A stretch of 58,089 nt of DNA, the filler included, from Sluysia triapertura (taxonomy: Eukaryota), in assembly GCA_046118255.1 (NCBI GenBank). It is 4 parts of 4 records of this genome, joined end to end, with 100 filler letters (N's around TTAATTAATTAA, not from the genome) between each part and the next. Parts side by side here need not be neighbours in the genome. Positions count along the whole stretch, not along the records: positions 14,826 to 30,370 come from JBJNIA010225572.1; 3 more parts are not named here. One strand, written 5' to 3'. This document shows positions 7,361-42,940 of the stretch, piece by piece. A program made the translations under genes and the position numbers. The notes under the pieces are model-generated. The model made no database searches. It was not told the origin of the DNA and saw only the letters and a program-made list of their open reading frames with translations. Within the stretch, counting starts at the first letter, position 1; each line of letters opens with the position of its first letter.

Positions 7361-7489
7361 CAAATAACAAAATACACTAAAACAAAAAACAGCACAATTA
7401 TTAGTTCCATAAAACTTTTAAGTGATATTTTCGGCAAAATTGCAAAATTCACCCAAATCATATCATTCTCTTCTAACCACCAATAAATT

Positions 7490-8804
7490 TTGGTAATGCA
7501 GTCGATGAAGAATATAATATTATTTAGACCAAATGACTCTGATGAAAAATGCCAAGGTAAAAAGCGAAAAGCTGAACAAGTTTCAAATGTTTACGTCGTA
7601 TTGTCTTTTTGTAATGACAAGAAAGCTCACATTCAAACAATTACTCCTTTTGATGTTTTCAAACATAATCAATATAATTTTTGCAGTACTCTACAGAGTC
7701 AGAATAGTTGTAATGAACATTCACGTAGTCCAGACGAAGATAGTTTTTACTGTGAAACACATAGAACAAATGCTTATGAAGAAGATAAAACTGGAAGTTA
7801 TAGTAAAACACCGGTAATGAACAATAGTGGAAATAGTAGATCCAATATATTAAGTCTAAAAGATATTACTGATTTAGTTAATAGTCGAAATCTAACATGA
7901 TTAACTCGTCTGATTGCCACATCTATGATATTATTTTTAAAAAATTTTTTGCTGTCAATTAAACTAAAAGACAAAAAATTAATGATTGAACTAGTTCGTT
8001 CAACAAAAAGCGGAACGAATGTCCCAAATCATAAAGGAACAGTTACTTAGTGAAAGAGTACTCGAAGATGAATTAGATAGCCATGACGACAAAGATTTAG
8101 GCAGAAGTACACAGATTATGCATAATCGACATGATATGTCAAAGAACTATAAATTTGAACCATTTCATCACTGTCTACTAAGATGACCGAAGGCCAGCAC
8201 CATGACACAAAGGAACGCAATCGATTTGTCTCTAGGCAGAGTAATGCCTTGCTTTAGATTAGTAATAAAAATTTATGCTGCAAATGGTTTATTATAAACA
8301 AAATTTGGTATAGAATTAATCATAATTCAGAAACCTGTTTCAAATCTCTGAAAAAATAGTCACGCTAAAATATTTTACTATACTGCAAATTAATAGGATC
8401 AACTTAATACTACAAGCTCAACAATTAACGATGTCATCAACAGTCAATCAAGAGAACAATTCAGTCATAAGCATAATGAATCCATGCGAATTCATGAATA
8501 AGACTTTTGCGATAAGATGTCATGCGTGAGCTCTTATTCTATATTTTTATTGATTTATATTTTAGATAATGAATGTAAGGAATGGATCAGTGGAGAACAA
8601 CAAGACGTGGTGATGTATAAAGATGAAGCAAAAGAACTCTTTCTTGTAAAATCTCAAAATGTTATTTCATGTAATAAATTTATTGTATTTAAAATTTTTA
8701 TATTTATTTTAAAAAACGAAATACGAGACTTGAATTTATTGTTTCGAAAAGAAAGAATTTTATGCTGTTACATAGTTTATACAAAAAATGAGTTCGAAAC
8801 ATAA
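7490..8804 (+). pseudogene. Disrupted member of an unknown ORF family (copy A) downstream of the double-dyad module
   Basis: ORF 7490-7900 N-terminus aligns loosely with ORF 24458-23976 (F..D.EK ... YVV) and with LFRSNE near 35635. A 40-nt GTGAG...TTAG segment at 8526-8565 matches the one in copy B. Confidence 0.5.
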
Positions 8805-9983
8805 CTCATCAACATTTAATGACTTAAAGGATGAAACTAAACTTAGATATAAATTTATATACAAAATAGTAGATACAACTCATATCTTAATAGCGTCTAA
8901 CTCTGTCATCCATCAGAACCTTCTAACCGATACATAAATACATTTCTATGAATAAACATTGAAAATAATTCAAGTAAAAAAATGGCTGCTCTAATTTTAA
9001 AATCAATAATTATTAATTAATTGTTTATTGTACTTTTTTTGTAATTATGTTCGAGTAATAATAATAATAACAAACGATTTCTATTGGAAATGGAATAATG
9101 ATATAAGTATATTTGAGAAATGTATTATTTTTAATAGTGAGTAGCTAAATATATAAATATAATAATAAAAAACGATTATTTCAAATTAACATTGGTAAAT
9201 TTTTTGTTACCACCTTTATCAAAATTGGACAAAATTTACTGAAGTGCTACATTATCCAGCTCCACTATGTCTTTTAATAGTAAAACACATGTTAGCAGAT
9301 GTTGGAAGCCATTTAATTCTGTTTGAGATTGTTTAGAGTCAATACAACTACAAGTTAGAATGTTCTAAATAAAATTTATTAATAATTTAGAGCTAAATAA
9401 CAAAAATTAAAAATACTATTTTTTCAAAAGTGTCCAATAAAATTTGTAATTATTTTTAGTAAAATTGTAACTTTAATTTTTACAAGTTTTATTTTCTCGC
9501 ATTTTTAACATCATTTGCCTATATATATATATGTACTAAAAAAATCAATAAATTTAAAATGAAAAAAACGACGTATGGATAAAATCGAGAATGACACACA
9601 GACACACACAGATTCAGTTGTAGAAATAAGTATTTAAGGCTGAAGCATACAGATAAACATTTTGAGTAAATTATTTCTATTGGCGAATTGAATAAAACAA
9701 AAAAGGAAACTTTATTACTAAATATAAATTTAAGATAATCTAAAGTAAAATAATAAATATATTAAATGATGATGTTATTTCATTGCAATTATTATTAAAA
9801 TAAAGTAAGAATTATCGAATTATTTGTAGAAGAAAAAGTAGAATACAAATTACAATTGAATTTTTGGTCGTGTATATAATCTTATAATTCTAAAACGTAT
9901 ACAAATGCATTAAATATGCTAAAAGAATTAGAAAGTTAATATTTTAATAATTTTTTATCATCAGTTTTGAAATCATTGCCTTA

Positions 9984-10187
9984 ATGGAGTCCGATATTGC
10001 TATTCAACCTCCAATATCTTTATTTTATTTTGATAATTATAATATTTTATTTCTTGTAATACTCAACATAACTATGCAAATCATTTTTGCTATTATATGT
10101 TATTATACTAAATGGAATAAAATTGTAGATATAAGTGGCGGCTTTTCGTTTATTTGTTTGGCAATAGTATCATTAATTTTATCTAGG
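9984..10187 (+). CDS. First exon of a DUF1295 (steroid 5-alpha-reductase-like) membrane protein; later exons not seen
   Basis: FDNYNILFLVILNITMQIIFAIICYYTKWNKIVDISGGFSFICLAIVSL matches the family N-terminal pattern (D.xxL....T..Q..F..I....K.DK.TD..G..NF...A..TL). GT donor at 10188 after codon 68. Confidence 0.7.
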
Positions 10188-11114
10188 GTTAGTTTAAATT
10201 TGTTTTGTTTAAATTCGTATTTTGTTCAAATGGAGTGATAACATTTGTCATAAATTATAAATTCAGATCAATAATAGATATAGTATTTTATGCTAAAATA
10301 TAAATAAATGTATTAAAATTTTATTAAAAATTTATTAAGAATGTAAGCATTTAAATTTTTTTAATTTTAAATTATTCTGTATTTTACGTAAAACATATCC
10401 TACAATATGGCGTTATATGAAAGAAGTTTTCCAAGTAAGTTCAATTTATTAAGTATTGTTTGAATTTTTAAAACTTACAATTTAATTAATATGCCATTGT
10501 TTTTTGACAATTGTTTCATATATTTGAATAGAAACATGTTTTAGAATTATGTTGATTTTAGGTTAGTGTTTTTAAATATTAAGAAGTATTGTAATGGGCA
10601 CTAGTATTGTTATGCTAGTAAAAGACAGTTAAGCATAAAATTAAAGTCCGGAATCATTGAGAAATAATAAATTAATAGTATTTTTATGTGTTTTTGGAAG
10701 TACTTTAAATAAATGAATTAAAATTAAATATAATAATTCAGTTTAAGTCTTATTAATTCTGTTTAAGATTAATATAAATGTAAATGGCAACTTAATCTAC
10801 TATTATTTTAAATAAAAATAATAAGGAATAAATAAATAAGAAGAGCTTTTTCGTAAGTTAATATCTGCAATCAATAAAAATGAGAATTTCTACACATTTC
10901 CGTGAGATTTTTCAGAATATGAACTTAAAATAACAATTGTCATTCTGAAGTTCAAAAAATTCGAACGTATTTTTTGCTGTTCTGTTCTTTTATTAAAGTA
11001 TTTTTGCACTTTAAAAAGCTTGGAAAGACTTAATACCTTATCGACATTGTTAAATTTTAACAAAAATGAAACAGTTTCGACATATTTGAATCTAATTGAA
11101 ACAAAGGTTGTTTG

Positions 11115-11405
11115 TGTATGGAAATCACATCTAGATTTCAACACTTCGTCGCATAAAAACATTTCTTACATACACAGAACATTAAATAAACTACTTAACT
11201 CATTTAAAAAACAAACAGTCATTGTACATAATTGTCATGAATCATAGTTATTGTTATTATAAATCCAATCGTATTAATAATTCTTATAATTTCGCATAAT
11301 TTTTTATAACATCACAATATCATCAACATTATTGTTTTTAAATATATAATAATTATGTTATTGTTCCTTTTATTTTCATAATTCATCTTCATTTCCTTTT
11401 TTGTT
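11115..11405 (+). mobile_element. TGTA-terminus leader repeat, copy I (paralogue of 19615-19903)
   Basis: Starts TGTATGGAAA and is colinear with the minus-strand copy starting TGTAGGGAAA at 19903, including an identical 17-mer AAATCCAATCGTATTAA (11261-11277 / 19776-19792). Confidence 0.75.
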
Positions 11406-11414
11406 TGTCTGAAC

Positions 11415-13099: not shown

Positions 13100-13298
13100 C
13101 TGTTGATTTTTTTATCAAAAACTATTGAACTTGATGCTCGAACTGTGGTCCTCCAGATTTGGAACAGCAGGCCAAGAGCGGTTCCATTCTCGTAGTGTTG
13201 CATTTTATCGGGGTGCCAATGGCTGCATGCTAGATTACGATGTTTCACAATTAACAATTTTACACAATGGTACGATGAGTTTTTATTACAAACAACGG
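13100..13298 (+). pseudogene. RAB7: Rab7/Rab9-family small GTPase fragment, frameshifted
   Basis: FLSKTIELDARTVVLQIW / TAGQERFHSRSVAFYRGANGCMLDYDVS / QWYDEFLLQ against the Rab7 consensus [44 protein letters not shown]...WRDEFLIQ. Frameshift at the Asp of WDTAG; no P-loop recognised. Confidence 0.9.
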
Positions 13299-14019
13299 TT
13301 ATATACATTATTGTACTACATATTTTTTTGTTTTCGAATATAAATGTAAATCTTGTTGGTTTGTTCTTAAAATTGTTTTTTTAAAAGCCTCAAGCCTATT
13401 TTATTAACTTGTTTAATTGTTGCTAAAAAGTTTAATATTTTGATAATTAGTTTTGTAAAGTTTAATGTTTATAATAATTTTTTAAAAATATAACAAATAA
13501 AAAGCCTCCAAAGTTTGTTTGAGAGTTTCACCCATCAGATGAACCATAAAATCTTGTTTCATTTTGCATAATTGTTTGTCATAAAATACAGAAAATGTAT
13601 AGTTTAATACTTCTGGTAGTCTTTTGACAATAATCCTGCACTTTTATTAGACATAATAAATGTTTCCAGAAAATAATAAAATATAAAAATATCGAGCCTT
13701 CTGATAGAAACTAAAACAGTATTATTTTCATAAAGACCGAGCTAATTATCTTCAGCATAGTATCAAAACTTAGTCGTTCTAAATTTACGATACTTTTTAT
13801 TGATGTCTTGCTGATACATTTTTTAAAATTATATTGATAATACTGGCGAAATAAAAATCAATTTTTATATAAAATTTTTGATTTATATGTAAGGGCCAAG
13901 TTGGCCTAATTTTTGAATATTTCATTTTTTAACTTTAAGATATGAATAAAATTTGTCTCGTGTACATAATATTTACTAGGATTTATTATTAATGGGTTTG
14001 GAGAGCTATTAAACTTAAA

Positions 14020-14725: not shown

Positions 14726-14825
14726 NNNNNNNNNNNNNNNNNNNNNNNNNNNNNNNNNNNNNNNNNNNNTTAATTAATTAANNNNNNNNNNNNNNNNNNN
14801 NNNNNNNNNNNNNNNNNNNNNNNNN
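14726..14825. other. Artificial contig-join linker
   Basis: 44 N + TTAATTAATTAA (stop in all six frames) + 44 N. Confidence 0.98.
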
Positions 14826-15838
14826 TACAATATCGACTTAATTTTGATTTTTATTGTCGGGTGTTTAAATTTTGGGAATAATAATTAGTGATACCATAGA
14901 GAGAGTTATTAAAAAATATATTTAATAAATTGACTATTAAAACTATCGAGACTCCTTTAAGTCATATTGAGTGGTAGGAGCCAGAAATTTTTAAAGACGC
15001 AACAATTTTTGACTTTCTAAAGATACTCTATTAAAATCATTTGTACATATTACTATACTAGCTCATATAAGTGGTTTGACGTTATTTTTCCATTTATTAT
15101 TAATTTTTGATTTGATTTTACCTTGCTTATGACGACTTATAAAATCTACTAAATTACTAAGCTGATCTACATCTAATAACTTGATTGCATAATCAGAAAC
15201 CCAGAAATGAATGCCTCTTCTTTCAGAAAATACCCACAAAATATGTTTGAAACCAAAGTCTTCATTATCGATATTATTTTAGTAAAATCTTGTTCCTTAT
15301 TTTCAATATTAGCATCGTTACTATCATGTTCTTGATTATTGTTACTTGAATTTAATAAAATATTTTCATTTGGTAATCTAATTTGGAATGGTAATTTCGA
15401 ATTCAGTTGTGGAAGTCATTATATTCATTATGTAGGTTTGATTGTTTGAGAACTATGATCTACAGTTGATACTCGTTTTACGAAACGCTTGTCTATTATT
15501 AAATCTAGATAATCTAATGTCTTTAACAATGTGAGCATGACTGACTCGAAAATTATGCTTTTTCTATTTGTAAATAAAATATTAGCAGCCATTCTGATTT
15601 ATTTGTTAATTATAAAACACAACAGTTATTTTAAAGTTACTAAAGACATGAAAATATGATTTAAACTATCAAATGATTGAAAAAATTCATGTTTATTCTA
15701 CGCAGTAAAATTAGAAAATCATGAATCGTAACGAATTCTCATTCAACCAGAGTGATAAAAATAATGAACAGAGCTGCTCTGGTTGGACGACCAATAATAG
15801 TACTAATTGTTTTTAACATTGACATGTCAACCCAAGCC

Positions 15839-15910
15839 ACTATCAATGGGGATCGAACCCGGGACCTCTAGCTACACAGTTCGATGCTCTACCACTGAGC
15901 TATCAGCCCC
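15839..15910 (-). mobile_element. tRNA-derived element (SINE head or tRNA pseudogene)
   Basis: GGGGCTGATAGCTCAGTGGTAGAGC...AGGTCCCGGGTTCGATCCCC has an intact D-arm/A box and a B box, but the acceptor and anticodon stems do not pair. Confidence 0.75.
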
Positions 15911-17160: not shown

Positions 17161-17500
17161 AATTGTATTTGATTTTCAGCTATTTTAATAGACTCCCTAT
17201 GTAAATTTTCTTAAGACTATATTTGATTTTCAGTTATTTTTAAGATAATTAATTAAGAAACATTTCACATAAGTTTTGTTGAATGTTATATTTAAATTGT
17301 ATTTGATTTTCATTTATTTTAAGGAGGATTGATAAGAGACTCCTTACCAAATTTTTGTTAAGACTATATTTGATTTTTATTTATTTAAGGTAATTAATTG
17401 AGAAACAGTTACGTAATTTTTGTTGAAGATTATATTTAAATCATATTTGATTTTCAGTTATTTTTAAGGTGAATTGACTAGAAACACTTTACGCAATTTA
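17161..17500. repeat. Minisatellite with a higher-order (dimeric) unit
   Basis: Core TATTTGATTTTCAGTTATTTTAAG recurs five times, alternating with GACTCC...AAGACTA and GAAACA...GTTGAA spacers. Confidence 0.8.
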
Positions 17501-17943
17501 TTATATCAAAGTATTGAGTATTTTATCTTCAGACATTATTATTAAGTTTTTAATAGAAAGGAATTATTATCAAGGAATTTCATTATTTTCGTCATCATTC
17601 TTTGTTATGCTACCCAAAAATATTTAAATAACAAAATTACTATTAATTTTTAGTGTTTGTTGCGTCACTCCTGGTTGTTTTGTCTTAATTAGATTGTAAT
17701 ATCTTTGATTTTATTATAAACATATTGTTATTTTTGTCGGTTTAGTGATTCTCAGCATTTAGTAAAGAATTTTATTGATAATAAATTATATTACGAATCT
17801 TTGTTTAATAGTACATTATTGTCTTATTTTTGATTTTGATTGCCAGGAACTTAAATTTGGGGATAATAGTTACTAATATTATCAAAACGGATTACTGCAA
17901 TAATATATTTGATGTACTGACTATTCAAATTATTAAGGTTCCT

Positions 17944-18980
17944 TTAAGCTAACCAAGTTAATATTTTTAAAGACGCAACATAACTAATATTAGCTTTTTT
18001 CGATAAAACATTTGGAAAAGTATTCCTACTATGAAAATTAGATTTCGATATATTTAATTGATTATTAGAACCTAATTCTGAAACGACATTCCAAGAACTA
18101 TTACCAGTATCAGCCGAACTAGATATATCTGAATCTAAAGCCTTATCATCTTCATCACAAGTAACAGAATTCGTTGTATTAATGTTAGAGCTGCTTTTTA
18201 TTGATATGTTTCCAATGTTATTTTCTATCAATAAACATTCATTAATTAAATTATCATCATTTAAATTATTTGCATAATTTTCTTTAAAAGAATCACTTTT
18301 TAATTCATCTAATGTTGTAAATTCAACGTGTTCACTTAATTCAACCGACTTTTCCATTTTTCTCGTTTAACGTTATTATTTAGTTTTACTTTCTGATTGT
18401 GATTATTTGTTTCCTGAAAACAAGAACAGCAGAGTCTTTGACGACCACAATTGAAATGAAGTAACGTCTTACGATTATCGAATAATTTAACGACAGAATA
18501 TTTCGGTTTAGACATTTCTTATAAATGTTCAAAGCAACTTATTTTTTATTTTCATTTGATTCCTATTCTAAACATAAATGATTGAATCTATAATAATATT
18601 TATTAAATTTATTAAAATTTTAGTTTTAAATTTATTTTTATTTTTATTATTTTTAAATAATTTTTTGTAATTTCAGGTTTCGTTAAAGGTGATAATGTGG
18701 AATTTTGGTAGCAAGGTGGTAATCTTGAATCAGGAAATAAACTTGAAAATACGTTAAACAATTTAGATCTATTTTTCGAATTTGTATTTGTTTTGGAATA
18801 GCATTTTCAGCAGCTTTAATATTTTCTGATGCTTGATCATTTTTCCATGTTACATCAAAAGATTTGAATAAATTAAGATTTTCTTAATGGAAGTTACTTA
18901 TATTTTGTAAATAATTTACTGAAAATGAATTTGGATTTTTAGTTTTAAAATCGAACAAATATGGTTCAGAGAACTTTACA
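17944..18980 (-). pseudogene. Degenerate coding region, unknown Ser/Asn-rich product
   Basis: 137-aa ORF 18357-17944 plus upstream coding-like blocks broken by stops and frameshifts; no family recognised. Confidence 0.35.
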
Positions 18981-19415: not shown

Positions 19416-19614
19416 ATCAATATTCATGAATAATGAATGAAATAAAATTCTGTTGAAAATACAATCGAGCTATTCGATAATGATGACGACGGTTTCTGTT
19501 ATGAATTGGTGTACAGATGGATGAAACTTTCAAAAACGATAATTGTGGTTTTGTTGACGCTATTTCTTAAAATAATAATGAATCCTGCGAAATTTCTGAT
19601 GATGTCGGAAGAAC

Positions 19615-19903
19615 CAAAGAATAAGAAAAATTGAAGGTAAAGATAAGAGAAATAATAATGATAATAATAACGTATTTATTGTATATTTTTAAAATAATGC
19701 TGTAATAATATTATTATAAAAATTATTATACGACAATCATATTATAAATAATAAAGACAATAATTATTATATATCTTAATACGATTGGATTTGTAATAAG
19801 ATTATGTTTTTTGAATGAATCAAGTAGCTTGTGTGATGTTCTATGTATGTATGAGATGTTTTTATGTGATGATGTGTGATGAATTTTATATGTTTTCCCT
19901 ACA
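19615..19903 (-). mobile_element. TGTA-terminus leader repeat, copy J
   Basis: Colinear with 11115-11405; begins TGTAGGGAAA; upstream of the GPCR relic on the same strand. Confidence 0.75.
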
Positions 19904-21429
19904 ATCCTTTTCTTGAACAATCTGAACATGCTAAACAAGTCACATCATGATGGTTAGAACAACCCGAAGAAGATATAACAATTGCAAGAATCATGGTTAA
20001 ATTATGCTCAATCATTGAAAACGAACTAATCAACAAATTTTCATAGCGAATATTGATATTTTACTGCGTTTTAATACATTTTGTTATTTCTTAATTTCTT
20101 TGCCATCAGTGGACAGCATGGATATAAAATGTGTGTCGAACATATTTTGTTCTTATCCTGACTGCGACACGAATATGATGAATAGTGAAACTAAATAAAA
20201 AAGAACGATTTAAACATAACGAACTTAAAACACAAACATGATGCTTCCACACGCGAACCAACAAACCAAGTAAAGTCTACTGAAACTCAGATAATAAAAA
20301 ATATCAAAAGTATTAAAAGAAATTGAAATGAAAAATGTCAATGAAAACACAAAATAGTCTTCTGAAGTATTTAAATGTGAAAATATACAAGATTATGATT
20401 TGAAAGGGATATTGGATCAAGTTGTAAAGGCTCATGATCACATATGTAATTCTTAAGTTGCATTAAAATTGATACGTAATTATGTCGTTTAATTATTATT
20501 TGTTTTATTACATATGCTATCGAAAATGATTAATGTTTCAATTTATGATTACAAATTTTTGCCATTCTTTCAAGTTAACTTTCTCTTGTTTTGTATCACG
20601 AGGCTTAGTTTTAATTTACTAATAAGTATTTTTCTCATATCACTCGAATTTGTTTTATTCTCTGCATGTTTATCACGACTAGAGACGTTCTTAGCCGATA
20701 AACTAAAAATAGAATATTATTGTTTTTGAAAATTGCAATGTATTGAAAACGTTGCTTGTTTTTATAGAAATAAAAATTATATTATATTTCAAAATCATTC
20801 TTCTAAAGATGTTGACGCGATTAAAGCATACCAAAATGTAGAATATATTTTTTCATTGAATTACACACACTTATTTCTTACTCGGTGAATGATTGCACGT
20901 GAGCGAACATTTCCTGAGATCTATGATTGGAATACACTTATTAATTATAGTAAACAATTGATAACAACATTCATTATTATTATTTATATTTTTCCAATTG
21001 TTGTGTTGAAAAATGAATTCAACCTTTGTTATTTGTTCAATTTGTTATTTACAAAAGGCTTTAAGCCTACTTTATTAATGGTTTTAAAGTTAAATTTGAA
21101 TTGTTTTTGTTAGGTAAATTTTTAACTTTTTTAATAAAAAATTAAAAACAAAATTTAATGTATCCATTAATTGCTATAAAAGAAAAGAGATAAACAAAAA
21201 TAATTATAAATTTCGAATATTAAAAGATAAAAAGCCCACTCCACAATCACAGCAATTATATTTTAAACTAACGAAGTTACTGTAGTAATCAAATTGTCTG
21301 ACAAAAGTTAATTTATTTAAATAATTCTCTCGAATTTTTGCTTTTATATTTTATAAGTTTTATAATCAACTTATATTTTTTAGTTTCTTGTAAATAGTAA
21401 GTGTGTTGTTTTCTGTCTTTTTAATTTTA

Positions 21430-22414
21430 TTAGCTCACCAACCAAAATCATGGTTTCGATTTGGTACAGAAATGGTATTCATGCGTGATTGGACATGATT
21501 GGTAATGGTTGGAAATGATTGGACGTCCACACTTGAATGATAATAATAGAAATGAGATTGATTGGACATCCAATCAAACAAAAATAATCATGAGACAACA
21601 ATTTAACCTTATTTACTAACAATGTCAGTAACAATCAAAAAGAATAACAAAGCTGTCAAGGATGACAGTATAGATAGTGGTAATACCACGAAATAACGAT
21701 TTAATTAAAAATATTGATGATTATAGTAATTATAATAAATAAACGAAATAATGATTATAATAAAGTAAAATACATTTAATAAAACACAAATCTTTTCTCT
21801 TTCTGTCAACATAATCTGTCTTTAAATGACTTTCTCTTCTTAACATAATATTTATTTTACATACTAGTGTAAATTTTATTCTGATTGTAATGTCTAAATG
21901 GTTTCAAATTGTTAATTTAATGTTTTCAGTGATATTAGAGATTGAGTGTTAAGGATTATAAAGCTAAAGTATTTTGAATTGATTTGAAGATGTCTATTCG
22001 TTGATTTAGGATGTAGTTGTGATTCTAATGTTGGGAGATAAAGAATAAAATGTTTTAAATAAATTTTGAATGTAGATTGGTGGTTTTGACTGAAGAAAAG
22101 GTTTGGACATTGAAAACTTGTGAAATAAAAACGTTTTGAATACAATTTAATGTGCATTAATGGTTTTGAATGGTATATATGATGTTGGAGTTTTTGAATT
22201 GTAATTTTAAGATGCTTTGAAATGAGACTAGGATTAGTTGATCTGAAAGAAATAAAATATGAAAAATGTTTTGATAAATTCGAAAAGGTAGTTATATAAT
22301 GTTAACTAATGTTATTATTGTAATGTTATGGAATTATGAGTAGGGAATGTTTTTAATGAATTATTAAATGTACGTTATTAAAATAAAATTTTAAAATATG
22401 GGTGAGCCAACACA
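21430..22414 (-). mobile_element. Divergent long-leader unit, copy D, ending in a CCAAT-box cluster
   Basis: Begins TGTGTTGGCTCACCCAT..TTAAAATTTTATT (compare TGTAGTGGCCAACACCCACAGCTTAAAATTTATT at 25703). G-poor tract, then TAT-rich tract, then five CCAAT/ATTGG motifs at 21488-21574. Confidence 0.55.
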
Positions 22415-23073: not shown

Positions 23074-24458
23074 TTATAAAAGATGGCCTATTACATCGTA
23101 ATTAGTTTCTGCCATGATATTAATAAGTTTACTTATGTATATAACTGTATTATATTTCGACATTCTTTCCTTACAGATTTGACTATATCTGAACTTATTT
23201 GCTTTATAAATCTTACATAAATTTCCGGATTGAATACATCTACATATTAATTCATTTATTTCAAATATTAATTCATCATTAATTCTATGCTTATTTAATT
23301 CAAAACGAAATATACAAAGTGTTTTATTTAACAAGTAACAAAGTAACGTTTTAGAAACATGAAGACTAAATTTATTAGAATAATAAATTATTAAAATTTT
23401 AAAATTGAAATCGTCAATAATAAAAATTAAAAATGTAAAATGTTTCATTTCATCGTCAACCCCCATTTCCCACCAACTTTTCTGCTGCATTTCGCGGATC
23501 CACCTAAGATATTTACAAACTAAATTAAAAATTAATAGATATATAAAATTAACACTCACTAGGCCACCCCTAACACTAATCATGATGTACTCGTTAAAAC
23601 TTGCAGATTGATCACCACCAAGTATGTCTACGGCATTATCATTACATTGTGATCGTAAATTCAGTGAATATGATCCAAAGTCTAAATTTGTTTGATCATC
23701 ATCATTATTTATTAATGAAATTTGATCCGAATAATCATGTTTATTCAAATAGTCTAATTTGTCAAACAAATCTTTCATTTCTTCAAGATTCACATTTTGA
23801 CACCCGTGACTTATGATCGAATTGGTCTGAATTTTAGTTTTTATAATTGATTTAGCGCACGCTTTGTTTTCTGACGAACTCTTATAAGGAAAATTGTGAT
23901 CCCTGTCAGGACACAAATCGTATTCATTACTTAAAATAGTTTCTTTATGATTACTAAATAAAGCTTTATTTTTCTTCAATGATTTTGTAGTTCCGCTTTA
24001 GATAGATTAGTAATAATAAATTGAGAATTCATTCCAGGAATATCTATTGACATAAATTCATTTCTTACATCAGTATTGGTAACAATTTGATCGATAAAAT
24101 TGATCGACACTAATGAATTATTTCGAATATCAAATCGTAAAGTTCGTGTTAAGTTGTGCAGAAAACTGTTCATAACTAAATCTCGATAATTTTCATCTTT
24201 CTCTTTATCGAATGAATAATGGTAATATGGCAAAGTAGTAATGTGATTGTTTGACCATGATTTCATGATGTTTAATTCTGTATTTTTACATTTATCTTCT
24301 TCAAAAACTACGTAAAATGAACTGCTGGTAACATTTTTTTGTTCAAGTACTGACATAGTTACTTTTTCATTGTCTGGAGTATAGAACATTGCTACACTGT
24401 TTGGAAAAGAGTCAAACGTTTTATAATCTACGTACTTTTGGTTAGTAATGAGCAACAT
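23074..24458 (-). pseudogene. Best-preserved member of the unknown ORF family (copy B): two overlapping ORFs probably split by a frameshift
   Basis: ORFs 24458-23976 (160 aa) and 23979-23074 (301 aa) abut. A 40-nt GTGAG...TTAG segment lies at 23559-23520. No RT, integrase or transposase motif seen. Confidence 0.55.
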
Positions 24459-24623
24459 CGTATAGGATTATTTTAAAAATTAAAAATTGAAATAATTGAA
24501 CTGAGAATTCTCCTTTAAAAATGATACTGAATTTTACTAATTTTAATTTTTTTTAAATTTTTAATCGTGACTGAGTATTTTGTATAATCATAAAAATTTT
24601 AATTTTTCTATCAGTCTAATTTT

Positions 24624-24787
24624 GCTTGCCCAATCAGAGTATTTGTGAGAATTGTCAGTAATTTATACTCTGATTGGGTAATGAATAAAATCTATTAAAA
24701 ATTAATTTTAGATTACCAACCGTCATCAGTACTGTCACTCGAATGACACTTTGTAACAGCGTTATAAGTACTGATGATGGCAGCAAC
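24624..24787 (-). promoter_or_regulatory. Double-dyad module, copy B
   Basis: Arms 24720-24733 / 24767-24780 pair at 13/14 (61-bp span). Perfect 14-bp arms CCCAATCAGAGTAT 24629-24642 / 24665-24678. Confidence 0.8.
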
Positions 24788-25703
24788 TATTTTAGCAAAA
24801 TTAAATTAAAATTAGAAATTAATATTTGACTGACAATAATAATAATAACAGCAATAAGATTACTGTTATTATCATTATTGTTAACAAATAAAAATGACAA
24901 ATCTTTTCTTGAACAAAATACACGACCTTTTCTTTCGATATCTAATATTTTTCTTACATATAAAATGATAAAAGAAGCAAAATTGATGACATGTTGTGAA
25001 AGAACAACGGTAACGAGGTATATTACGTCTCGGTTGTCGTTGTTGTTTCATATTGAGATAATGTGTTCTCTAAAGTTTTATTGTATTTATTTCTAAAGGT
25101 AAAGAAATAATTTGATTTGTATTTGAAACAAAAAATGTTGGAATAAATTATTAAAATTTATTAAAGATTTGTGATTGAAAATAAAATTAATGTCTTGAAT
25201 CTGATAGTTTGAGATGCTTATTGAAAGGTTGTAGTTTATTTAGTTTTAAACGACGATCACAAAATAAATCTTAACGTATCTGTAATGTTGTTAAGAATAG
25301 ATGTTGATGATGAATATGTGTAAATGAAATAGATTTAGTTTGGTATAGTTGGTAAAAGATTTTAATGTAAATGTTTTCTATTTCTGAGGTAATTGTTAGC
25401 GTTGTTGAATGGTGTTATTGTATTTATGATTTGTGTATTATAGCTTTGGAGTTAATGTTGTGGGTTATTCGAGATTATTTATTGGAGTATGTTGTGAAGT
25501 GGATGGTTGAGAGTGTTCGTAGAATTGTTGATATATATGAGTTGAAGAGATGTTATAAATGTCGAGTGTTATTCGTGGTGATTGATTTGGTGTAGTTCGA
25601 TAGTAAGAAGTGTAATTGTAATTATATTTTAGTGAACTTTTGAGTTATGGATGTTGAGTGTAAAGTTTTAATAAATTTTAAGCTGTGGGTGTTGGCCACT
25701 ACA
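24788..25703 (-). mobile_element. TGTAGTGGCCAAC-terminus long leader, copy B
   Basis: 16-nt identity with 34029-34044 at the terminus. Colinear shared blocks with 34032-35220: ACTCGACATT, ATGTCATCAAT, TTTATATGT, CGAAAGAAA, GTTGCT.CCA. Confidence 0.8.
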
Positions 25704-26149: not shown

Positions 26150-26443
26150 CTGTCCCGAATGATGTTCCACGTATTTCTCCCGCTACGCTACTTTTAGTTC
26201 GTTGACAATCGCAGTGTCCTTGTTCACATTCAGAGTTAGTGTTCCAAGGGATCCCAAGATGTTTCCGATTCGATATAGATGATCGACGTTCTGTAAACAA
26301 TTGGTGTATGAAATCATTAGTTCATCCAATGTATGGGCGTCTATACAACTGTTCCCATATTTGATACAATTTCCTTTTTGGTCAGCATTGAATAGGCACA
26401 TTCCTCTTTTGATGTCTTCACCAAAGAGTTTCACATAAATCAC
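26150..26443 (-). pseudogene. Unkempt-like CCCH zinc-finger fragment
   Basis: IKRGMCLFNADQKGNCIKYGNSCIDAHTLDEL fits the Unkempt finger pattern YKTG.C...TD.KGNC.KNG.HC.FAHG..DL. A shifted frame gives a further Cys-rich relic (PWNTNSECEQGHCDC). Confidence 0.65.
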
Positions 26444-26927
26444 ATTGTGATTCAGCTGATGATGTTATATCATTATTGTTACTAAGATAAAGTGTGTCTT
26501 TAGTCTTTTCTATCGTCTCCAAACTAGCTTTATCATTTAATAATGTTAAAGAATTAAATACTGAACTTTTATTAAGATTCTCTGTCATTTCTCGTAAAAA
26601 GATACATTCACATGCTTCATTGGTCGACTACAAATATCTTGTCAATGTCCAAAATTGTACCGATCATCGAAAGTGTAAGAATTAATGAATAACATTTATT
26701 ATGAATTGCACACGATTTGTTTGAATTTATACATACACAAACATTCATAATGTATTATCGATTAATTTGTAATTTATCATTTTAAAAATTGATTATTTGG
26801 AATTATAATTATTATTTTAATTTATTATTATTTGAAACTAAAAGTACGTTTTATTGTTGTTATTGTTTTTAATTAATTTTAATTTTTATTATTTTTAATT
26901 ATTTTTAATTAATAATTATGATTATTC

Positions 26928-27210: not shown

Positions 27211-27657
27211 GTTAATTTAAATTTTAAGAATTTGATATTATTATATCCAAGCAAAATAGACTCAAATTTCATTTAATCATTTAGACCATATAAAGGTCTC
27301 GTGTAAAATCTCATTTTTAAACTATAAAGAGTGTATAGCTAGTTTTACCTAGCTATTGCAAAATCATTATTATTATAAAGAATTTGTAATTAATTTTTAT
27401 CTTTGTAAAGACATTATTTATTTGAATAAATTGTTACTTAAATCATCATTTGTAATTTTTGATATAAAATTATTAAAATATATGGAAGAGATTTCCCATA
27501 CTAGAATATAATTTCTAGGTAGAAAAATCATTCAATTCAATCCTATATAACAGGATTTGGTAATATAATTTTTATTTTACTGATTAACTTTTTCATTTTA
27601 TTGAGTTAATTAAAATGATTGATCCTGATTCTACTTTGTATTTTCATGATAGAAATT

Positions 27658-29010
27658 TGGCGCCCGATTAATTTTTAAGTGATTATGGTTACTCTCTTGG
27701 AGTTCATGATGATATATTAAAAGTTATTATTGTTTAAGATACACATTTTAGTTATTCTACTCCCAGTAAGACTATTAAAAGAAAAATAGGTAAGGATTAC
27801 TTTAACCATTCATTTATGGATATTAATGACAATAATAATCTTGAGAATAGAATTATTGATACTGATAATGAACAACCAGATTCAAATGGCAACTCAGATG
27901 TAGAAATATTAAAAAAGGAAACAAATACTTAACAAAGATTACTTATGATAGCGATAAAGGTTAATTAGATACAAGATGTTTAATTTACACCTTATTGTGT
28001 GATAAGTTTGATAATTTCGGTAAGTATAAAATATTATTACCTAATATTAAGGATTATAAAATACTATTGATAAAATAACGCAACATTTATAGGAAAAATC
28101 AGAGATAAGGACAGAAGTGAGTATATAAACACGAGACAATGTAATTAGTTTCAGGTAAACAGATTAATACCAGCTTAAATAGAGAAAAACTCAAAATGTA
28201 ATTGTCCACATATTATTTCAGTGCGATAATACAAGACTTCTTACTAAAGAAAAAGTAGATAAGATGATATATCTTACAGACAAAAAGTTATGGAATGAAA
28301 ATCAAGGTTTTTGGGAAGATATAATTAAAGAAAGAGAAAAATTAAACTCTGACGAAAATTTCAATAGGTTCACAGATATATTAGAAAATAATAACATTAA
28401 ACAATATAGTACCTAGGTTAAGTACTACTAATAATATGTTATATGTAATTTTTTTGCTTGATATGCTTGGTATGAATAAGACAAATGGAATTAAGGCATT
28501 TGACTACAGTAGACAACTAATAGATCGAAAGTTTTCATTGCTCAACATGGAAGATTGTCTAGAGTCTAAATCTAATAGAGTATTCATTAATGATAGTAAA
28601 ATACTAAATGTTTATCAAGGTAATTTAATAAAAACTCTAGTAAGAGAATGTTCAATAAAAAGATCAGTTGTAACTTGGTATTGTGAACAACATATTCAAC
28701 ATATCAAACGTTTCAAAACCGTTCTAAATATCACCCAGTAATTGTAGGGATGCATTCGAAACTGGTTAAATAAGAAAGAAATAAGTTGAGAATAAAATAT
28801 AGTGACAGATAATTTGCAATGTGCGGACTGCAGGAAATGTATTATTAGACGGAGCATGAAGTTAAGATATACCATAACGTTTTGGCACAATAAACATGCG
28901 TAGTGGATCTAAAATCTTTTAACGAAAGTTTAGACAAATAAAAAGGCACTATGATGTCACGTTCTTTTTGTAAAATAGACTAGCTGCGACATAGGAGAGT
29001 CTATATTGCT
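27658..29010 (+). mobile_element. Possible highly decayed Gypsy-type LTR retrotransposon internal region
   Basis: TGGCGCCCGA (27658-27667) is the tRNA-Lys-type primer-binding site. KILNVYQGNLIKTLVRECSIKRSVVTWY resembles the integrase core (.I.SDQG..F.S.L.K.L....GIK.S.T.PY). No RT motif seen. Confidence 0.4.
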
Positions 29011-30370
29011 CTATGAATTAATATTTCTAAAACAAATTAAGTGTAATCTTGTATTCGGATTTGTATTTCAGAACGATTATGATTCTTCGATTGAAGAATT
29101 GAATGAGACAAAGAGATAAGAAAAATTTAGAACGAAAAAAAAACTCATGCAATTCTTCTGGAAAATAAGGAATAAGACGGTTTAATATTTTTGTCTAAAA
29201 GATCGATCATTTGGTATAGTAACAGAGACCAAGGCATTTATTTGTCTGAACATATATTTTCACAAGCCAAAACGGGAGTTGACTCTAAGAATTTGAATAC
29301 GTCAACAATAAGAATGACTTTTATTATCATTTAAAACTCATGTGCTTAGAAAAAGTTTATCAATCAATGATACCAAGATATTGACAACTAAATAGTGAAA
29401 TCCCTTAAGACATCATATTATACTTTTGAATTATTTTGAAATTAATACCAATCTTTTTTCTTTACTGTCTTCGAATTCAAATATATTTCTACGGTACATG
29501 ACAAATTCAGTATTATCGATCATTAAAATTTGGATTTTATATTACATTAACTCAGTGGTCACATTTTTGGTTGTGTGACTTTTTTGTACCAGTAATTACG
29601 AAGTCATTAAGTAAGATAAATAAATTTAAGCTTAGAAAAACTTTAATTATTAATAATAGGAATAGTATGATGAATAAAACTATAAATTCACGAACATTTA
29701 ATCATAAATGTAATGTTAATTTTAATAATTACTTTAACTCCAACTTTTCCGATTGCATTAACTATGCTTTTGGTATTATGTTATTTGGTTTAGACTTGAT
29801 TATAATAAATTGTACATTGAAACTTTTTATTAACACAATTAAAAAATTTTATAGGAAATTGAAAATTAATGTTGCAATTACCTTTAATCAAAAACTTTTT
29901 ATTAAATTTAACTTAAATTTCTTGAAATCTAAAAACAAATAAAAATAACAACTAAAACTATTTATTTTGATCATTCTATATAAATAACAAATATTTTTAT
30001 AAATTGTTTTGTCATTTTTTGAATATGCCATGACAGAGATTCATATCTTTTTCTAAACAAATAAAAGAATATAAAATCATTTAGGTCAATATGAATCAAA
30101 AAAAGATATATAATTATTTCTGTCTCACCTTGTATTACTGGATCGGATGGCACGTTAATACAGTTATCATTGGTAATATTACCTTCACTAATGGATAAGT
30201 TATGTATGTCAGGTATGATTCCCAAGGTTGATAAAAAAGATTTGATTCTATCATAGTTATCATTGAAATTTGCTGGTGTAATGGCCGGGCTGGGGTGTAT
30301 ATTAATTTACTGCTCAAACTGTTGATTATTATTAAAGAAAAATTCATAGTTAATGAAAATAAAGACGTAA

Positions 30371-30470
30371 NNNNNNNNNNNNNNNNNNNNNNNNNNNNNN
30401 NNNNNNNNNNNNNNTTAATTAATTAANNNNNNNNNNNNNNNNNNNNNNNNNNNNNNNNNNNNNNNNNNNN
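30371..30470. other. Artificial contig-join linker
   Basis: 44 N + TTAATTAATTAA + 44 N. Confidence 0.98.
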
Positions 30471-31700: not shown

Positions 31701-32019
31701 TGTTTGTCTTTATTAGCTACAAATAAGTGAAGATTTATGGACAATGTTGGTGAATATTGTCATTTTTACTGTAAGTGTTGTATACTAAGCTGAGATATTT
31801 CTGAGATCTGATTGTAGTTGTTAATGTTGTTGAAAGATTATAAAATGTGACTGTTGAGATAACTGGCAATGAGGGGAAATATCAGTTAATGAGTGGAAAT
31901 GTCTGTTTTATAGATTGTTGTACTGTCAACTATAATGAATGGTGTGATTGTTTATGGTGCAAGGTATTTTGGATTTTTGGTCCAACACTTTGAGAGTTTT
32001 GGTGTTTCAGTTCACTACA
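31701..32019 (-). mobile_element. TGTAGTGAAC-terminus unit, copy F (solo-LTR-like)
   Basis: Minus strand reads TGTAGTGAAC ... CTATAAAA (31913-31906) ... AATAAA (31714-31709) ... CA (31701). Shares TACCTTGCA..TAAACA with copy G. No TSD found. Confidence 0.55.
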
Positions 32020-32067
32020 ATCAAATTATTAAAAAATAAACATTTCTAAACATTGCTCGATGATCTT

Positions 32068-32852
32068 TGTAGTGAACTTCAGATCACCTCATAATAATCA
32101 TAAACAAACACCAACACAAATCAACGTACCTTGCATAAACATATTATTAAACGAACTGCTCAATATATACAAAACATAAACACACTCATACTAATTTCAT
32201 AATTGTTATATTTTGTTTGTGAAAATATCTTATTATTGTTACTGGTATTATTATTACTGATTTTATTATTGTTATTTCTGCTAATACTACTTATATATAT
32301 TTTATCACTAATTTTATTGTCATTATTTTCATGTAATCAATTTTACCATCTTTTCTTCATATTTTATTTCATTTCTATGTAATATTTTAGCACTTCTAAT
32401 TTATTACAAGCTAAACATAAGCCCCAATAAGATAGTTATAAAATAATCAAAATAATAGCTTAAACCGTATTACTGTTTACATTGCATTATGAAGATAACG
32501 ACATCATATCTTATTATAATTCTATCAGTATTTCTTTAATTTTGATAATTACACTTGTAACAATACAATTAATTTTATTATTATTATTATTTTAACAATT
32601 ACACAAATATAATAAATTTTATTCAATAATTTATGTAATGCATGATTTAAATAACTGCATAAAAAATCAACTTTTATAAATATTATAGTTTCACTTGTAT
32701 TTTATTATGATTATAATTAATAATTAGTTAAGTTCAACAAAACGGAAGCTATGAAGATTGAATGAATGTTTTTGTACTTTATGTACTATTGAAGATTTAT
32801 AATATTTGAAATTTGGATAAAGATTATCTACAACGTCTATTAATTATTTAAA
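32068..32852 (+). mobile_element. TGTAGTGAAC-terminus leader, copy G
   Basis: Shares CACAAATCAAC, CATAAACA, ATACAAAACA and a distal TTTGAAATTTGGA (32805-32817) with copy H (49972-50792). Confidence 0.65.
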
Positions 32853-34031: not shown

Positions 34032-35215
34032 TGTAGTGGCCAACCTTTACAACCACTAAAATTTTATTAAAAATTAATATCTTCTCTTATCTTCATACTT
34101 TAACAATAATACCTTTCATCTCTTACATACTTTCTAAAATCAATCCATATCCACAATTCCACAACATACAAATCGCAATTACACCAGACATTACTAATTT
34201 ACATCAACTAATCCACTAAAAACATGTACTCGACATTCATAATAATCCAACAACAAACACATTCGAGATAATCTGCTCAATACTTTCGAATCCTTCATTT
34301 TATACTACACTTTAATATTTAATACTTAATATTTAACAATATTTATTTAATAGTTTTTTTGCCTAAACTAAATCACAGTCACAAGCTTATAACACATAAA
34401 CCACAATTACATTTAATACCATTTGATAACACCAGCAAATCTACTTGAAACATATAAAATACCTACTTCACATCTCCGAATCAATTACAACATCTTAATT
34501 TCATTATTCGTTTATGCATAATCACCACCAACACAGTACATCAACACAGTATAACAACACCAAAAACATCAAACAAACAAATCACACAAAACATTGTACA
34601 ATAACATCTTAATTATACCAAGAGTTGTGTTGTAGTTGCACTTTTAGATTTATGAAGTTGCAATCTTCTCAATAAATCTTCCGACATTTAAATCTTGTTT
34701 TCAATTGTAGACTTCAATCAGTATCTAAGAACTCATTCTAACATTATCTGTTTCATCTCACGATTCAAATCACTTATTATATCTTCAAAGGTTAATTATA
34801 CTCATTAATTCTTTCAAAAAATAATTATTACTCAGAAATTTAGTCCCAAATACATTTTTAATTTATTTAATTTTTGTTAGAAATCTTTATGAATTTAAGG
34901 AAGATCGTGTAGGTTTTAAAGAATTCAATTGTATGTAATAAAATAACGACAATAATTCGAGCATAGTGCACCTTTTTATTGTCGCTATTTCTTTTTATGT
35001 CATCAATCTTTATTTTATTTTATTTCTTTATATGTCAAGAAATAAGTAAGACGAAAGAAAGTTCATGTTAGATTGATAATGAAGGAAATTTATGCATTAT
35101 TTTTTAATTTTCTTTTTAATAATAATAATAATAACAATATTGTTATTTTTATTATTATTTCCGAATTAATAAATGAACAATTATTTAATTTTTAATTTTA
35201 ATAAAGTCACAATTG
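34032..35215 (+). mobile_element. TGTAGTGGCCAAC-terminus long leader, copy C
   Basis: Colinear with copy B; strongly G-depleted first ~600 bp; ends AATAAAGTCACA just before the dyad module. Confidence 0.8.
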
Positions 35216-35390
35216 GTTGCTACCACCACCAGTGTTGATACTGCTCGTCACAATCTTCATTAAAGTGTCAACATTGATCATGGCCAATCATGAGTAATCA
35301 CCATTTTTGTGAGTGAAGTTTCTTTCTCTAAATATCATCCAATCAGGACTAATATAATTTAATTTTCTGTTTGGAAGCCCTGATTGGATG
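35216..35390 (+). promoter_or_regulatory. Double-dyad module, copy C
   Basis: Arms 35223-35242 / 35264-35283 pair at 15/20 (61-bp span). CATCCAATCAGGACT 35336-35350 / AGCCCTGATTGGATG 35376-35390 pair at 14/15. Confidence 0.8.
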
Positions 35391-35574
35391 ACCAACTAAA
35401 ATTCGAGTGCTAAAAAAGAAGCACATAATTTTAAAAGTTCCGGATTTAAATTAACACTAACGATAAATCAGAATTTGCTGGCAAAAAAAGAAATTAGACA
35501 AAAATAATAGAATTAAAGCTTTTTAAAAAATCAGCTACGTACTGTTAATCTAAAATTTCCAGCATAGTGATACT

Positions 35575-37232
35575 TTAATAATGGTAACTCAATCAAGACA
35601 AAAAAAGTAAAAGGAGGCCGTCAAAAATTAAAGTTATTTCGTTCAAATGAGTCTCAAATGTGTTCTTAAGTGGGAAGTTAATTATTCATCAACACAAATG
35701 AATCGTGTAAAATCAAGAGCTGTTTTATTAAACAATGATTTTAAATCTTACATGAAAGTAAAAGTTCATAACCAATTTTTAACAAAGAAAATATGCCTAG
35801 TCGATATAAATTCAAAGAATATTGTACTTTGATGTTTCAAAATTTAAAGAAAGATTTAATATTAAAGATTCGGATTATTTTTATGCCTTTACTAAAAAGC
35901 AGCCATAATGGCGTCCGAATAAGAAATATGTTTTAACATATCATCATTTTATTGTTGAGATTATAACTAGCGAAGATGTTGAACAGTATATCATTTATTA
36001 GAAACTTATCATGGATTCGTAAGGAAGAACTCTTTTACCTCGTGGTTTAACTATGTATCGTTTAATAGTATTTGATCACATTTACTATATATTAGTCATA
36101 AAAATTACGTTTAGTCCTCATCTTCCTATTTGCAACAAGTATCAACTTAAACAATATTATGTTAGAATGTTTCGTAGGACTCAAACGGTAGTATTATCAA
36201 AATTAGATAATATGCGCATTTCAATTAAAGACAATACATCAAGAATCCGAAGATATGTTAAAAAAGTTATTAGTTGAACCATGCTTTAAATATGCCCATG
36301 AAAGTAGTGATGTAGTTCATCGATTTAGTTATGGCTATTTTTCTTCTTACAATGTGTTTGACTGGGAAAAACTAACCACTGAAAGTGATGTGATGTTTAA
36401 TTCTATTATGGTTTATTTCACAAACGAGGTTCCTAATCATAAAGCTATTTTAAATTCATTCATAATGATGCTGATCAACAAAAATTATGATATTGTAATT
36501 TAGTATCCGTTAATCCAAAAGTACGGAAAATCAATCAAAATTAGTTACGATCGTCTTGTCCCTGAATTTAACAAATCAAAGTCTATGTTGATTTCAATTA
36601 AATCTTTTATTGTGAATTTTTATTATGTTACAACAAAATTAACTAATTTCGGACCGAAAATTCAATATCAATTTCATTTATATTTTCAACTTAACTTTTC
36701 ACTTACATATATTGATCTGGTGAAGACAAGATCGATCAATTCCAAGATTTCCTAAGATGTTAACCATAACGGCCATGTTAAGATCATGTCTTTGGTAATT
36801 TTTGATTCTTTTCATATAATTCATTGTTTTATTGTACTTTTTAGATTACGTGCACAATACTCGGATTTATGAAGTGTGACGAGATGCAGCAAAAAAATCA
36901 ACAAACCGAACTCAAGATTCAATAACAATTTAAAGTTTTTATATTATCTATTCGATTGTATGTTAAATAAAATTTCCTGTTTTGTTCATTATAAAAGTTT
37001 TGTTGGTTATATAAGCAATGGTAACCTAACCTTTAAAAAAATCAGATACATGTTAAAAAAAGCGAATACGAATCGTAAAATAATGTACTTACAATTATTG
37101 AACAATAAATTTCCTAATATTAGTTTCGCCATAAGATTATGTAATCATGTAACATATAATATTAAACTTACATTAAATAAATATGTAAACATTAACATGA
37201 ATCGAATAATTTTTCATAAACCAAAACTCTAA
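35575..37232 (+). pseudogene. Fragmented coding region downstream of module C
   Basis: Series of same-strand ORF fragments (35647, 36053, 36255, 36876). KLKLFRSNESQMC near 35625 echoes NIILFRPNDSDEKC of copy A. Confidence 0.4.
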
Positions 37233-37885: not shown

Positions 37886-39017
37886 TATAACTGCAGGAAT
37901 TTATGCATAGTTATGAATTTATGAATATTATTTTACATTCTTACGAATTTTTTACTTTTTATTATACCTAATAATTCAATAAGAGAAAATAATAAATATA
38001 ATAATAAATATTATAAATAAATAATAATAAATATTATAATAAATATAATAATATTATTATTATATTTATTAAATGTTTATTAAATATATAATTATTTAAT
38101 TATTTGATAACTTCAAAAAAATCTCATCTCATAATAATTTTGGCTAATCAAAATGTCTAATAAATAATTCTTTATATAAGTGCCGTATTTATAATTAAAT
38201 AAAAATTATTATTGTCACAGTAAATAATTCCTTGATTAGATAAGCATATATAAATTCTTCTTTTAAACCATTTACTGGAAATTGTAATTGTAATTTTTTT
38301 AATTTTTAAATAGTTAAATCCAAATGCTTTTTTAATATTTATTTTAAAATTTATATGGATTTCAAAAATTTTAATTATTTTCTGTTCCATTATCGCGATG
38401 AAAAACTAAAGTAATTTTATTAATTAATTATACGAAAAACATTATAACCTTTTATAGGCCGAATATATTTTCTTAAATATAAAAAATTTTTTTTGACATT
38501 TCAGGTTGATATTGCTGCCAACCGTCATCAATATTGTACTTGGTTATTTCAGAGGCACTATAATTAAGATGTATATATCATCTTGTGAAAAAACTAAAAC
38601 TATTTGGTAAACTGTATATATCTTAATTAGATCTAATATATCTAATGTATTAGATAAATCTAATATATCTAATATATAACTCGCAAATATATTTTATAAT
38701 AACAATCTAGATTTTTCTAGTACTAAATACCAAAATTGCCAAAATAAGTAATAAAATTAAACCAACAATAATAAAAAAATGGTCAGATTTTTTATCCATG
38801 ATAAGAAGCAAAAATTAACAAAATGTTTGAAAGAATTGTTTGCGAATTTTTAAATAATCTTAATATTATTGTAAGACATAAATATAAGATTAATATAAAC
38901 TGAACATATAAATGGAATTGAGAAGAACAATGATTCGCATTTTTATATAAAAATTTATGTAAAAACAAAATTAAAAATGTAAACAATAACCTAAAAATGA
39001 TTAATACTAAGAATTAA

Positions 39018-42840: not shown

Positions 42841-42940
42841 NNNNNNNNNNNNNNNNNNNNNNNNNNNNNNNNNNNNNNNNNNNNTTAATTAATTAANNNN
42901 NNNNNNNNNNNNNNNNNNNNNNNNNNNNNNNNNNNNNNNN
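42841..42940. other. Artificial contig-join linker
   Basis: 44 N + TTAATTAATTAA + 44 N. Confidence 0.98.

Follow-up and report, generated by a model that had tools for sequence, protein, structure and literature searches.

The pertinent sections of a published account of long terminal repeats (LTRs) place AATAAA before a GT-rich stretch and an end of about 7 bp with the consensus YNYAACA, link the conservation of long R regions to stem-loops, and describe the TGT/ACA integrase end as conserved across LTR families while the interior is not (PMC3601003). Additionally, antisense accessory open reading frames (ORFs) without homologues have been described near the 3′ LTR of Grande, RIRE2 and Retand, and an antisense promoter in the 3′ LTR of human T-cell leukemia virus, in the corresponding sections of another work (PMC7264820). 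Here, a repeat with part of this layout is described in a 58,089-nt stretch of DNA from Sluysia triapertura (GCA_046118255.1; hereafter, the window), where three copies, A, B and C, are each accompanied by a broken ORF region. This repeat is a real, previously unmatched family with an integrase-type end, and no description of it was found in open-access full text. It is given about an even chance of being an old, decayed LTR-retrotransposon family, whose unit would be a long LTR with an antisense accessory gene alongside. The TGTAGTGG terminus, from which the initial annotation had read the unit, is likely the 3′ end of that LTR (...CCACTACA) read backwards, the sense strand being the G/T-rich one.

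The window comprises four contigs of 15-29% GC per kb, joined by identical, artificial linkers of 100 nt (44 N, 12 letters, 44 N; 14726-14825, 30371-30470 and 42841-42940), across which adjacency may not be real. Copies A, B and C are found on contigs 1, 2 and 3, respectively, and, therefore, their relative orientation is uninformative. Similarity is given as z, a composition-aware local alignment compared with 30-nt local shuffles. The repeat is organized as follows:

25697-25703 (+): terminus of copy B, CACTACA on the plus and TGTAGTG on the minus strand, where homology with C starts beside an unrelated flank; likely the integrase end of an LTR on its 3′ (U5) side.
25110-25696 (+): G/T-rich, C-poor tract of copy B, recognized by composition and colinear with C (z 9.8), in which AATAAA starts 34 nt before the end; seen from the other strand, it is the leader initially called G-free.
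24800-25110 (+): A/T-rich, non-coding segment of copy B with AAT-type triplets, colinear with C (z 24.1), with indels that are not multiples of three.
24720-24780 (+): non-coding hairpin of about 60 nt in the dyad module of copy B, with a fold z of -4.6 on the plus and -3.7 on the minus strand.
24630-24676 (no strand): inverted CCAAT...ATTGG pair of copy B, conserved in A, B and C; predicted bidirectional promoter.
34032-35441 (-): repeat unit of copy C, with the terminus at 34032, a G/T-rich tract, AATAAA 37 nt before the end, the hairpin at 35223-35283 and CCAAT/ATTGG at 35339-35386.
7188-7408 (-): hairpin of copy A (7193-7253) and its CCAAT dyad (7306-7354), of which one box is degenerate, with triplet-repeat DNA in place of an alignable leader or terminus.

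The 13-mer TGTAGTGGCCAAC has two exact occurrences in the window, at 25703 (-) and 34032 (+), with 0.31 expected at no more than two mismatches. As the initial annotation had proposed, B and C start at the same 16-mer, although it begins 3 nt further out than previously given (25706 in B and 34029 in C), and colinearity holds all the way from the TGTAGTGG end to the dyad of CCAAT boxes, with z 9.8 in the G-poor tract, 24.1 in the AT-rich middle and 14.7 in the hairpin/CCAAT module. The repeated non-coding stretch extends for about 1.1-1.4 kb, and the outer flanks of both copies, considered over 600 nt beyond the terminus, are unrelated (z 0.1). The module is common to A (z 26.9), as had been claimed, and no leader is shared by A (z -0.3 and 0.8). 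Homology can be demonstrated as far as about 23471 in B, 8612 in A and 35441 in C, and the 3′ ends formerly placed at 23074, 8804 and 37232 are only the stops of ORFs. The leader, reported as G-free, is merely G-poor, with 12 of 411 nt being G in B and 21 of 576 in C, and longest G-free runs of 97 and 130 nt, respectively. Conservation is higher in the non-coding DNA than in the ORFs. DNA motif scans of metagenome contigs yielded no match, and three viral-contig matches to the 16-mer were GC-richer and unrelated, one of them lying within tRNA-like sequence. A CACTA element spanning B and C was ruled out by their location on different contigs and by homology outside the CACTACA pair, and a single long inverted repeat with A and B for its arms was ruled out by their different contigs and the lack of homology in A 8900-10900.

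The same kind of end recurs in the window. When tiles from 3.8-39 kb were compared with the entire window in an unbiased search (threshold 62; null scores with a mean of 48 and a maximum of 66, n = 40), three independent pairs were found whose homology starts 3 (B/C), 2 (F′/G) and 0 nt (I/J) from TGTA, so that all three significant terminus-bearing pairs have a TG...CA integrase end at a sharp homology boundary, at one end only. The F′/G pair (32068 and 49972, z 11.2) starts at TGTAGT and its flanks give z 0.6, whereas the I/J pair (19903 and 11115, z 26.2) starts at TGTA and its flanks give z 0.3. Since homology begins at TGTA in three pairs and the flanks are unrelated, it does not run on past the TGT terminus as in an ordinary segmental duplication, and a recurring mobile-element end is indicated. 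Further units are:

32068-32204 (+): terminus and leader of unit F′, pairing with 49972-50108 of unit G.
19605-19903 (-): terminus and leader of unit I, pairing with 11115-11412 (+) of unit J.
21002-22414 (+): unit D, bounded by a perfect 7-bp end repeat and matching at 4 of 5 positions of a target-site duplication (TSD), with a cluster of five CCAAT boxes and with AATAAA starting 33 nt inside the end.

Unit D, whose CCAAT boxes lie in its 5′ half, is the best solo-LTR candidate; it has the architecture of B and C but is not alignable to them (z 1.2-2.0 against their leaders), and unit E (45990-47628) makes a weaker end-repeat and TSD case. TGTAG is present in B, C, E, F, F′, G and I, in a window where TGT occupies 2% of positions. 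A C-rich/G-poor tract comes next at 7 of 20 TGTAG[TG][GA] sites, against a base rate of 2.8% (P 7e-7, with the motif chosen post hoc). The unit families are mutually unalignable except for ATT repeats, which account for high z values in the A-G and G-I pairs that were disregarded; hence, what is conserved between families is the end motif together with the strand bias rather than the sequence, as has been described for integrase ends across LTR families (PMC3601003). The termini of F (-) and F′ (+) stand back to back, 48 nt apart (32013-32078), with their first 11 letters in common and hardly any similarity between their bodies (z 1.9). Along one contig, units point the same way (I, D and B all minus; A and J plus) and, by inspection, the orientation of units and of most gene fragments is uniform per contig (contig 1 plus, contig 2 minus), like a strand-biased repeat cluster. 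A candidate element of 5.5 kb, extending from G to 55471 and with a TSD of 4 bp, was dropped, being at chance level. These comparisons support a recurring end of mobile-element type with no mobility enzyme nearby. The initial proposal of a non-autonomous mobile element thus stands as regards the end, while the unit of 2.6-3.2 kb attached to it cannot be shown, because end-repeat/TSD and partner searches of the window contigs found no second end for A, B or C.

The polarity of the repeat was judged from its signals. On the G/T-rich strand, the order is CCAAT boxes, 45-60 nt, the hairpin, an A-rich segment, 450-600 nt of G/T-rich DNA, AATAAA and ...CACTACA. Since this is the published U3-R-U5 order, the LTR polarity was provisionally assigned to the G/T-rich strand, opposite to that first assumed. 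The distance from the start of AATAAA to the end is 34 nt in B, 37 nt in C and 33 nt in D, every unit is GT-rich just inside its ...ACA end, and CACTACA fits YNYAACA at 6 of 7 positions. The pairing of the hairpin is kept in 48 of 54 cells across A, B and C, and, on the G-rich strand, the five G-U cells and zero A-C cells point to an RNA of that strand, where the fold also exceeds shuffles in B (z -4.6) and A (z -3.1). The module was rejected as coding on either strand, with silent to replacement changes of 1-3:12-16. Hairpins at the termini themselves are no better than shuffles in five of six ends. A further, partial copy of the module hairpin was detected:

38510-38580 (+): piece L, partial hairpin copy (nhmmer E 0.043), sharing an exact 13-mer with B and an 11-mer with A.

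Beyond the CCAAT dyad, an ORF starts 140-200 nt past the second box, antisense to the presumed LTR strand:

23976-24458 (-): copy B ORF piece 1, 160 codons from ATG.
23074-23997 (-): copy B ORF piece 2, 307 codons from stop to stop in another frame; the frame break lies in the overlap with piece 1.
23520-23559 (-): 40-nt GT...AG segment of copy B, which recurs in A at an equal length and at the corresponding place.
7496-8804 (+): broken ORF region of copy A, with two patches colinear with B and the 40-nt GT...AG segment at 8526-8565.
35581-37232 (+): broken ORF region of copy C, in which six stretches of 54-119 codons, spread over three frames, are free of stops; it cannot be aligned to the A and B ORFs.

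Stop-free runs of 160 codons are expected only 0.003 times by chance in the window, so these ORFs are taken as real coding sequence, although all those of A, B and C are broken. They do not form the single family that had been suggested. A and B share two patches, 8007-8439/23999-23583 (z 5.7) and 8487-8612/23593-23471 (z 3.3), that is, the middle and 3′ parts rather than the N-terminus initially assigned to both (first 600 nt, z -1.0; BLASTP best E 27), and the ORF region of C matches neither of them in 12 of 12 tile tests (z ≤1.6). Being open in frame and hydrophobic, with 11 of 30 residues identical to A (E 0.2), the 40-nt segment could be either a short intron or a transmembrane-coding stretch. 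Homologues of B piece 1 were sought among 14 candidates, none of them at E ≤0.1, with 0.87 as the best value in the Atlas and a blank result in viral contigs, and its AlphaFold model built without an alignment reached a pLDDT of 33. The first 146 aa of B piece 2 had no match among 1.84 billion proteins, and PHROGs, searched with 16 ORFs, returned weak matches only (best E 1.3e-4, to an unknown family). The Pfam protein-family search took in 48 of the 62 ORFs of at least 70 aa and 128 complexity-filtered segments of 38-69 aa; among these, as initially noted from the sequence, there was no match to a reverse transcriptase (RT), integrase, DDE, HUH or recombinase family.

According to the LTR interpretation, the CCAAT pair would be a two-way promoter within U3. 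In one direction, an element RNA would start at the hairpin and be polyadenylated at the AATAAA near the GT-rich end; in the other, the antisense accessory gene would be driven, located either in U3 itself or immediately internal to the 3′ LTR. The TGT/ACA ends may have been joined to AT-rich DNA by an integrase of retroviral type encoded elsewhere, and D, E, F, F′, G, I and J could be LTR ends of further families piled up in one repeat-rich region, mostly as 3′ or solo LTRs. The LTR identity, the strand, the bidirectional promoter and the integrase acting in trans are inferred. Membership of any named family, Metaviridae and Belpaoviridae included, is not established, because a primer-binding site (PBS) and gag-pol were tested for without a find, and pairing and TSDs gave no clear result.

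Several observations weigh against the LTR interpretation. AATAAA is absent from the last 80 nt in six of nine units and is common in the DNA of the window (0.4% per nt). None of the 10 ends has TGG next, as a PBS would require, so all of them would have to be 3′ or solo LTRs. For A, B and C, no second LTR, polypurine tract (PPT) or clear 5′ start was found, and a direct partner of the repeat was likewise missing within the 12-15 kb contigs, which are too short to exclude one. Both ends together with a TSD were found within 3 kb in 2 of 10 units, which is chance level (null mean 1.2, P 0.35; D alone, P 0.09), and in neither B nor C. In copy C, the fold of the hairpin is stronger on the C-rich strand (z -2.3) than on the G-rich one (z -0.3), and covariation is not above shuffles (65 of 500, n = 3 rows). 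Additionally, a distance of about 1 kb from promoter to end is unusually long for R-U5, unit I shows a run of 10 purines just outside TGT (background 0.24%), which fits the opposite polarity, and neither gag, protease, RT, RNase H nor integrase matched Pfam in the 48 ORFs and 128 segments.

That opposite polarity, under which TGTAGTGG would be the 5′ start of an LTR or non-autonomous element with a C/A-rich sense strand and the ORF a sense cargo or gag-like gene, is considered unlikely. The match of TGTAGTG to the 5′ consensus TGTTRNR is as good as that of CACTACA to the 3′ one, the ORFs follow on the C/A-rich strand in A, B and C, and purines lie outside TGT in I and in B (10 in 12); a purine run precedes TGT on that strand in 1 of 10 units. 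However, the string AATAAA-GTCACA-AT-TGG, correctly reported in C (35200), does not behave as the LTR/PBS junction proposed for it, since the AATAAA-CA-TGG arrangement exists in C only, A and B having different letters at the site, and homology runs through it in A and B. Moreover, positions 12-18 of the would-be PBS hold no complement of a tRNA T-arm, going by the general structure of tRNAs, the CCAAT boxes would fall outside the LTR, and no gag or pol match was obtained. Similarly doubtful are long terminal inverted repeats (TIRs) of a cut-and-paste DNA element, with a retroviral-type integrase of Ginger-like or Polinton-like kind, an inward promoter and varying cargo. The repeat is followed by one ORF in B and by a different one in C, and at 52330-54000 (-) there are broken frames that we take to resemble a decayed Polinton/Maverick integrase and an adenovirus-type cysteine protease, but these are unconfirmed by Pfam or viral contigs, no inverted partner of B or C lies within 10.9 and 8.8 kb of their respective contigs, and within a contig the units share one direction (I, D and B minus; A and J plus). 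Ginger termini read TGTNR and Ginger genes keep introns, in favor of such an element, but Ginger TIRs measure 40-270 bp, not more than 1 kb, in the sections describing them (PMC2836005).

Slightly less credit still is given to a host family of divergent gene pairs, in which a polyadenylated non-coding RNA and a fast-evolving protein gene would share the CCAAT promoter, TGTAGTG would be an RNA cleavage site and the copies would be ordinary duplications. AATAAA about 30 nt before CA would be a normal poly(A) signal, the ORFs are truly coding with an intron-like segment, and the hairpin is conserved; on the other hand, three pairs unrelated to one another have the limit of their homology at one and the same TGTA motif, none of the ORF copies is intact, the non-coding DNA is better conserved than they are, and, as is well established, the GT-rich elements of host poly(A) sites sit after the cleavage site and not before it. 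Pseudo-LTRs (pLTRs) of a Penelope-like element moving intron-containing genes in trans are improbable. The pLTRs combine bidirectional promoters with palindromes and can frame intron-containing host genes, but are about 200 bp long where described (PMC3846280). An Rfam search of the window at E ≤1 matched neither a hammerhead nor any other family, and the constancy of the TGT end from one repeat family to the next speaks for an integrase instead. Segments of an endogenous multipartite virus mobilized in trans, an alternative raised initially in the form of a virus-like segment family, are very improbable. One gene per unit behind a common terminus would suit it, and a decayed coding region at 27600-29400 (+) contains, 2.7 kb from B, a weak match to a Monjiviricetes fusion glycoprotein (28385-28738, E 0.0038, below the cut-off), but this match is unsupported by PDB and Atlas searches, the viral searches returned no relatives, and there are no direct-repeat junctions. 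Two further candidates were rejected, namely a Helitron (no RepHel match, no conservation after ...ACA, terminal hairpins at shuffle level) and a tRNA-derived SINE (a B box within 150 nt in 0 of 10 units, 0 calls by ARAGORN, and a resemblance of the 16-mer to a tRNA D-arm that is a chance match).

Apart from the repeat units, the window has a eukaryotic character, given by the Rab and DNA primase fragments and probably that of an AT-rich invertebrate, and contains the following features:

13107-13340 (+): Rab-type small GTPase fragment (Pfam Ras, E 2e-6).
15066-15278 (-): DNA primase small subunit fragment (Pfam E 4e-10).
26186-26464 (-): fragment of an Unkempt-like CCCH zinc finger (E 1e-7), lying 500 nt beyond the terminus of B on its outer side.
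15835-15910 (-): tRNA-like head in which an A and a B box were recognized by eye, possibly a SINE, uncalled by ARAGORN and Rfam.
48265-49026 (+): intact frame of 253 codons with a transmembrane-like stretch, probably a host last exon, for which the search returned no homologue.
17161-17499: tandem repeat with a period of about 135 nt.
14826-15004 and 17812-17980: repeat of about 170 nt in direct orientation (score 131), where contig 2 begins.

If these repeats are LTRs with an antisense accessory gene, they would represent an undescribed retroelement family of a known kind, with an unusually long distance from promoter to end and orphan accessory proteins, which would be useful for annotating a poorly annotated AT-rich genome and for learning what antisense accessory ORFs do. 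A bolder reading, to which we attach a rather low probability, is that of integrase-mobilized gene cassettes in an animal genome, in which an LTR-like arm of more than 1 kb with a two-way CCAAT promoter and a structured RNA would carry exchangeable, intron-containing orphan genes, differing between B and C, with no enzyme of its own, in several families and with about one end per 6 kb. If it were true that one arm moves different intron-containing genes in trans, orphan genes could be multiplied and exchanged by a path that goes unseen in standard counts of retrocopies.

Comparison with described systems places the locus as follows. The pLTR-framed host genes of Adineta vaga, as far as the relevant sections of PMC3846280 describe them, likewise combine a palindromic terminal repeat, a two-way promoter and an intron-containing gene with no enzyme in cis; unlike here, their pLTRs of about 200 bp have no fixed TGT end and 8-10 bp TSDs, and no Penelope RT or GIY-YIG ORF matched Pfam in the searched window segments. 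Ginger1 and Ginger2 are alike in their TGTNR termini and tolerated introns, but, in the corresponding description (PMC2836005), their TIRs of 40-270 bp come with 4-bp TSDs, whereas the present repeat exceeds 1 kb and has no inverted partner and no transposase, a Gypsy-like integrase/transposase of the Ginger kind being without a match in the 48 ORFs and 128 segments. Burro, the giant Gypsy element of planarians, was compared by description only (the pertinent parts of PMC6431247): both show AT-rich invertebrate-type DNA, long repeats with tandem repeats and accessory ORFs, and the Burro env matches mononegavirus fusion proteins, a weak match of such a kind being found near B, but no gag, RT, BIR, MATH or ankyrin match was obtained here. 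The LTRs of animal Metaviridae (Gypsy) differ in that about 1 kb separates the promoter boxes from the end in the present repeat, that no 5′ end, PBS, PPT or TSD is shown for it, and that it has an inverted CCAAT pair and not a clear TATA box, whereas the same TGT/ACA end, the GT-rich stretch and AATAAA inside the 3′ end, and a stem-loop in a long R are shared, as set out in the sections cited above (PMC3601003). Finally, although Grande, RIRE2 and Retand have known gag-pol, while here none is linked, the host is presumably not a plant and two unrelated ORFs follow the same repeat, the likeness to these elements, in the part of their description considered (PMC7264820), lies in a homologue-less ORF, antisense to the presumed element strand, with what would be its own promoter at the repeat.

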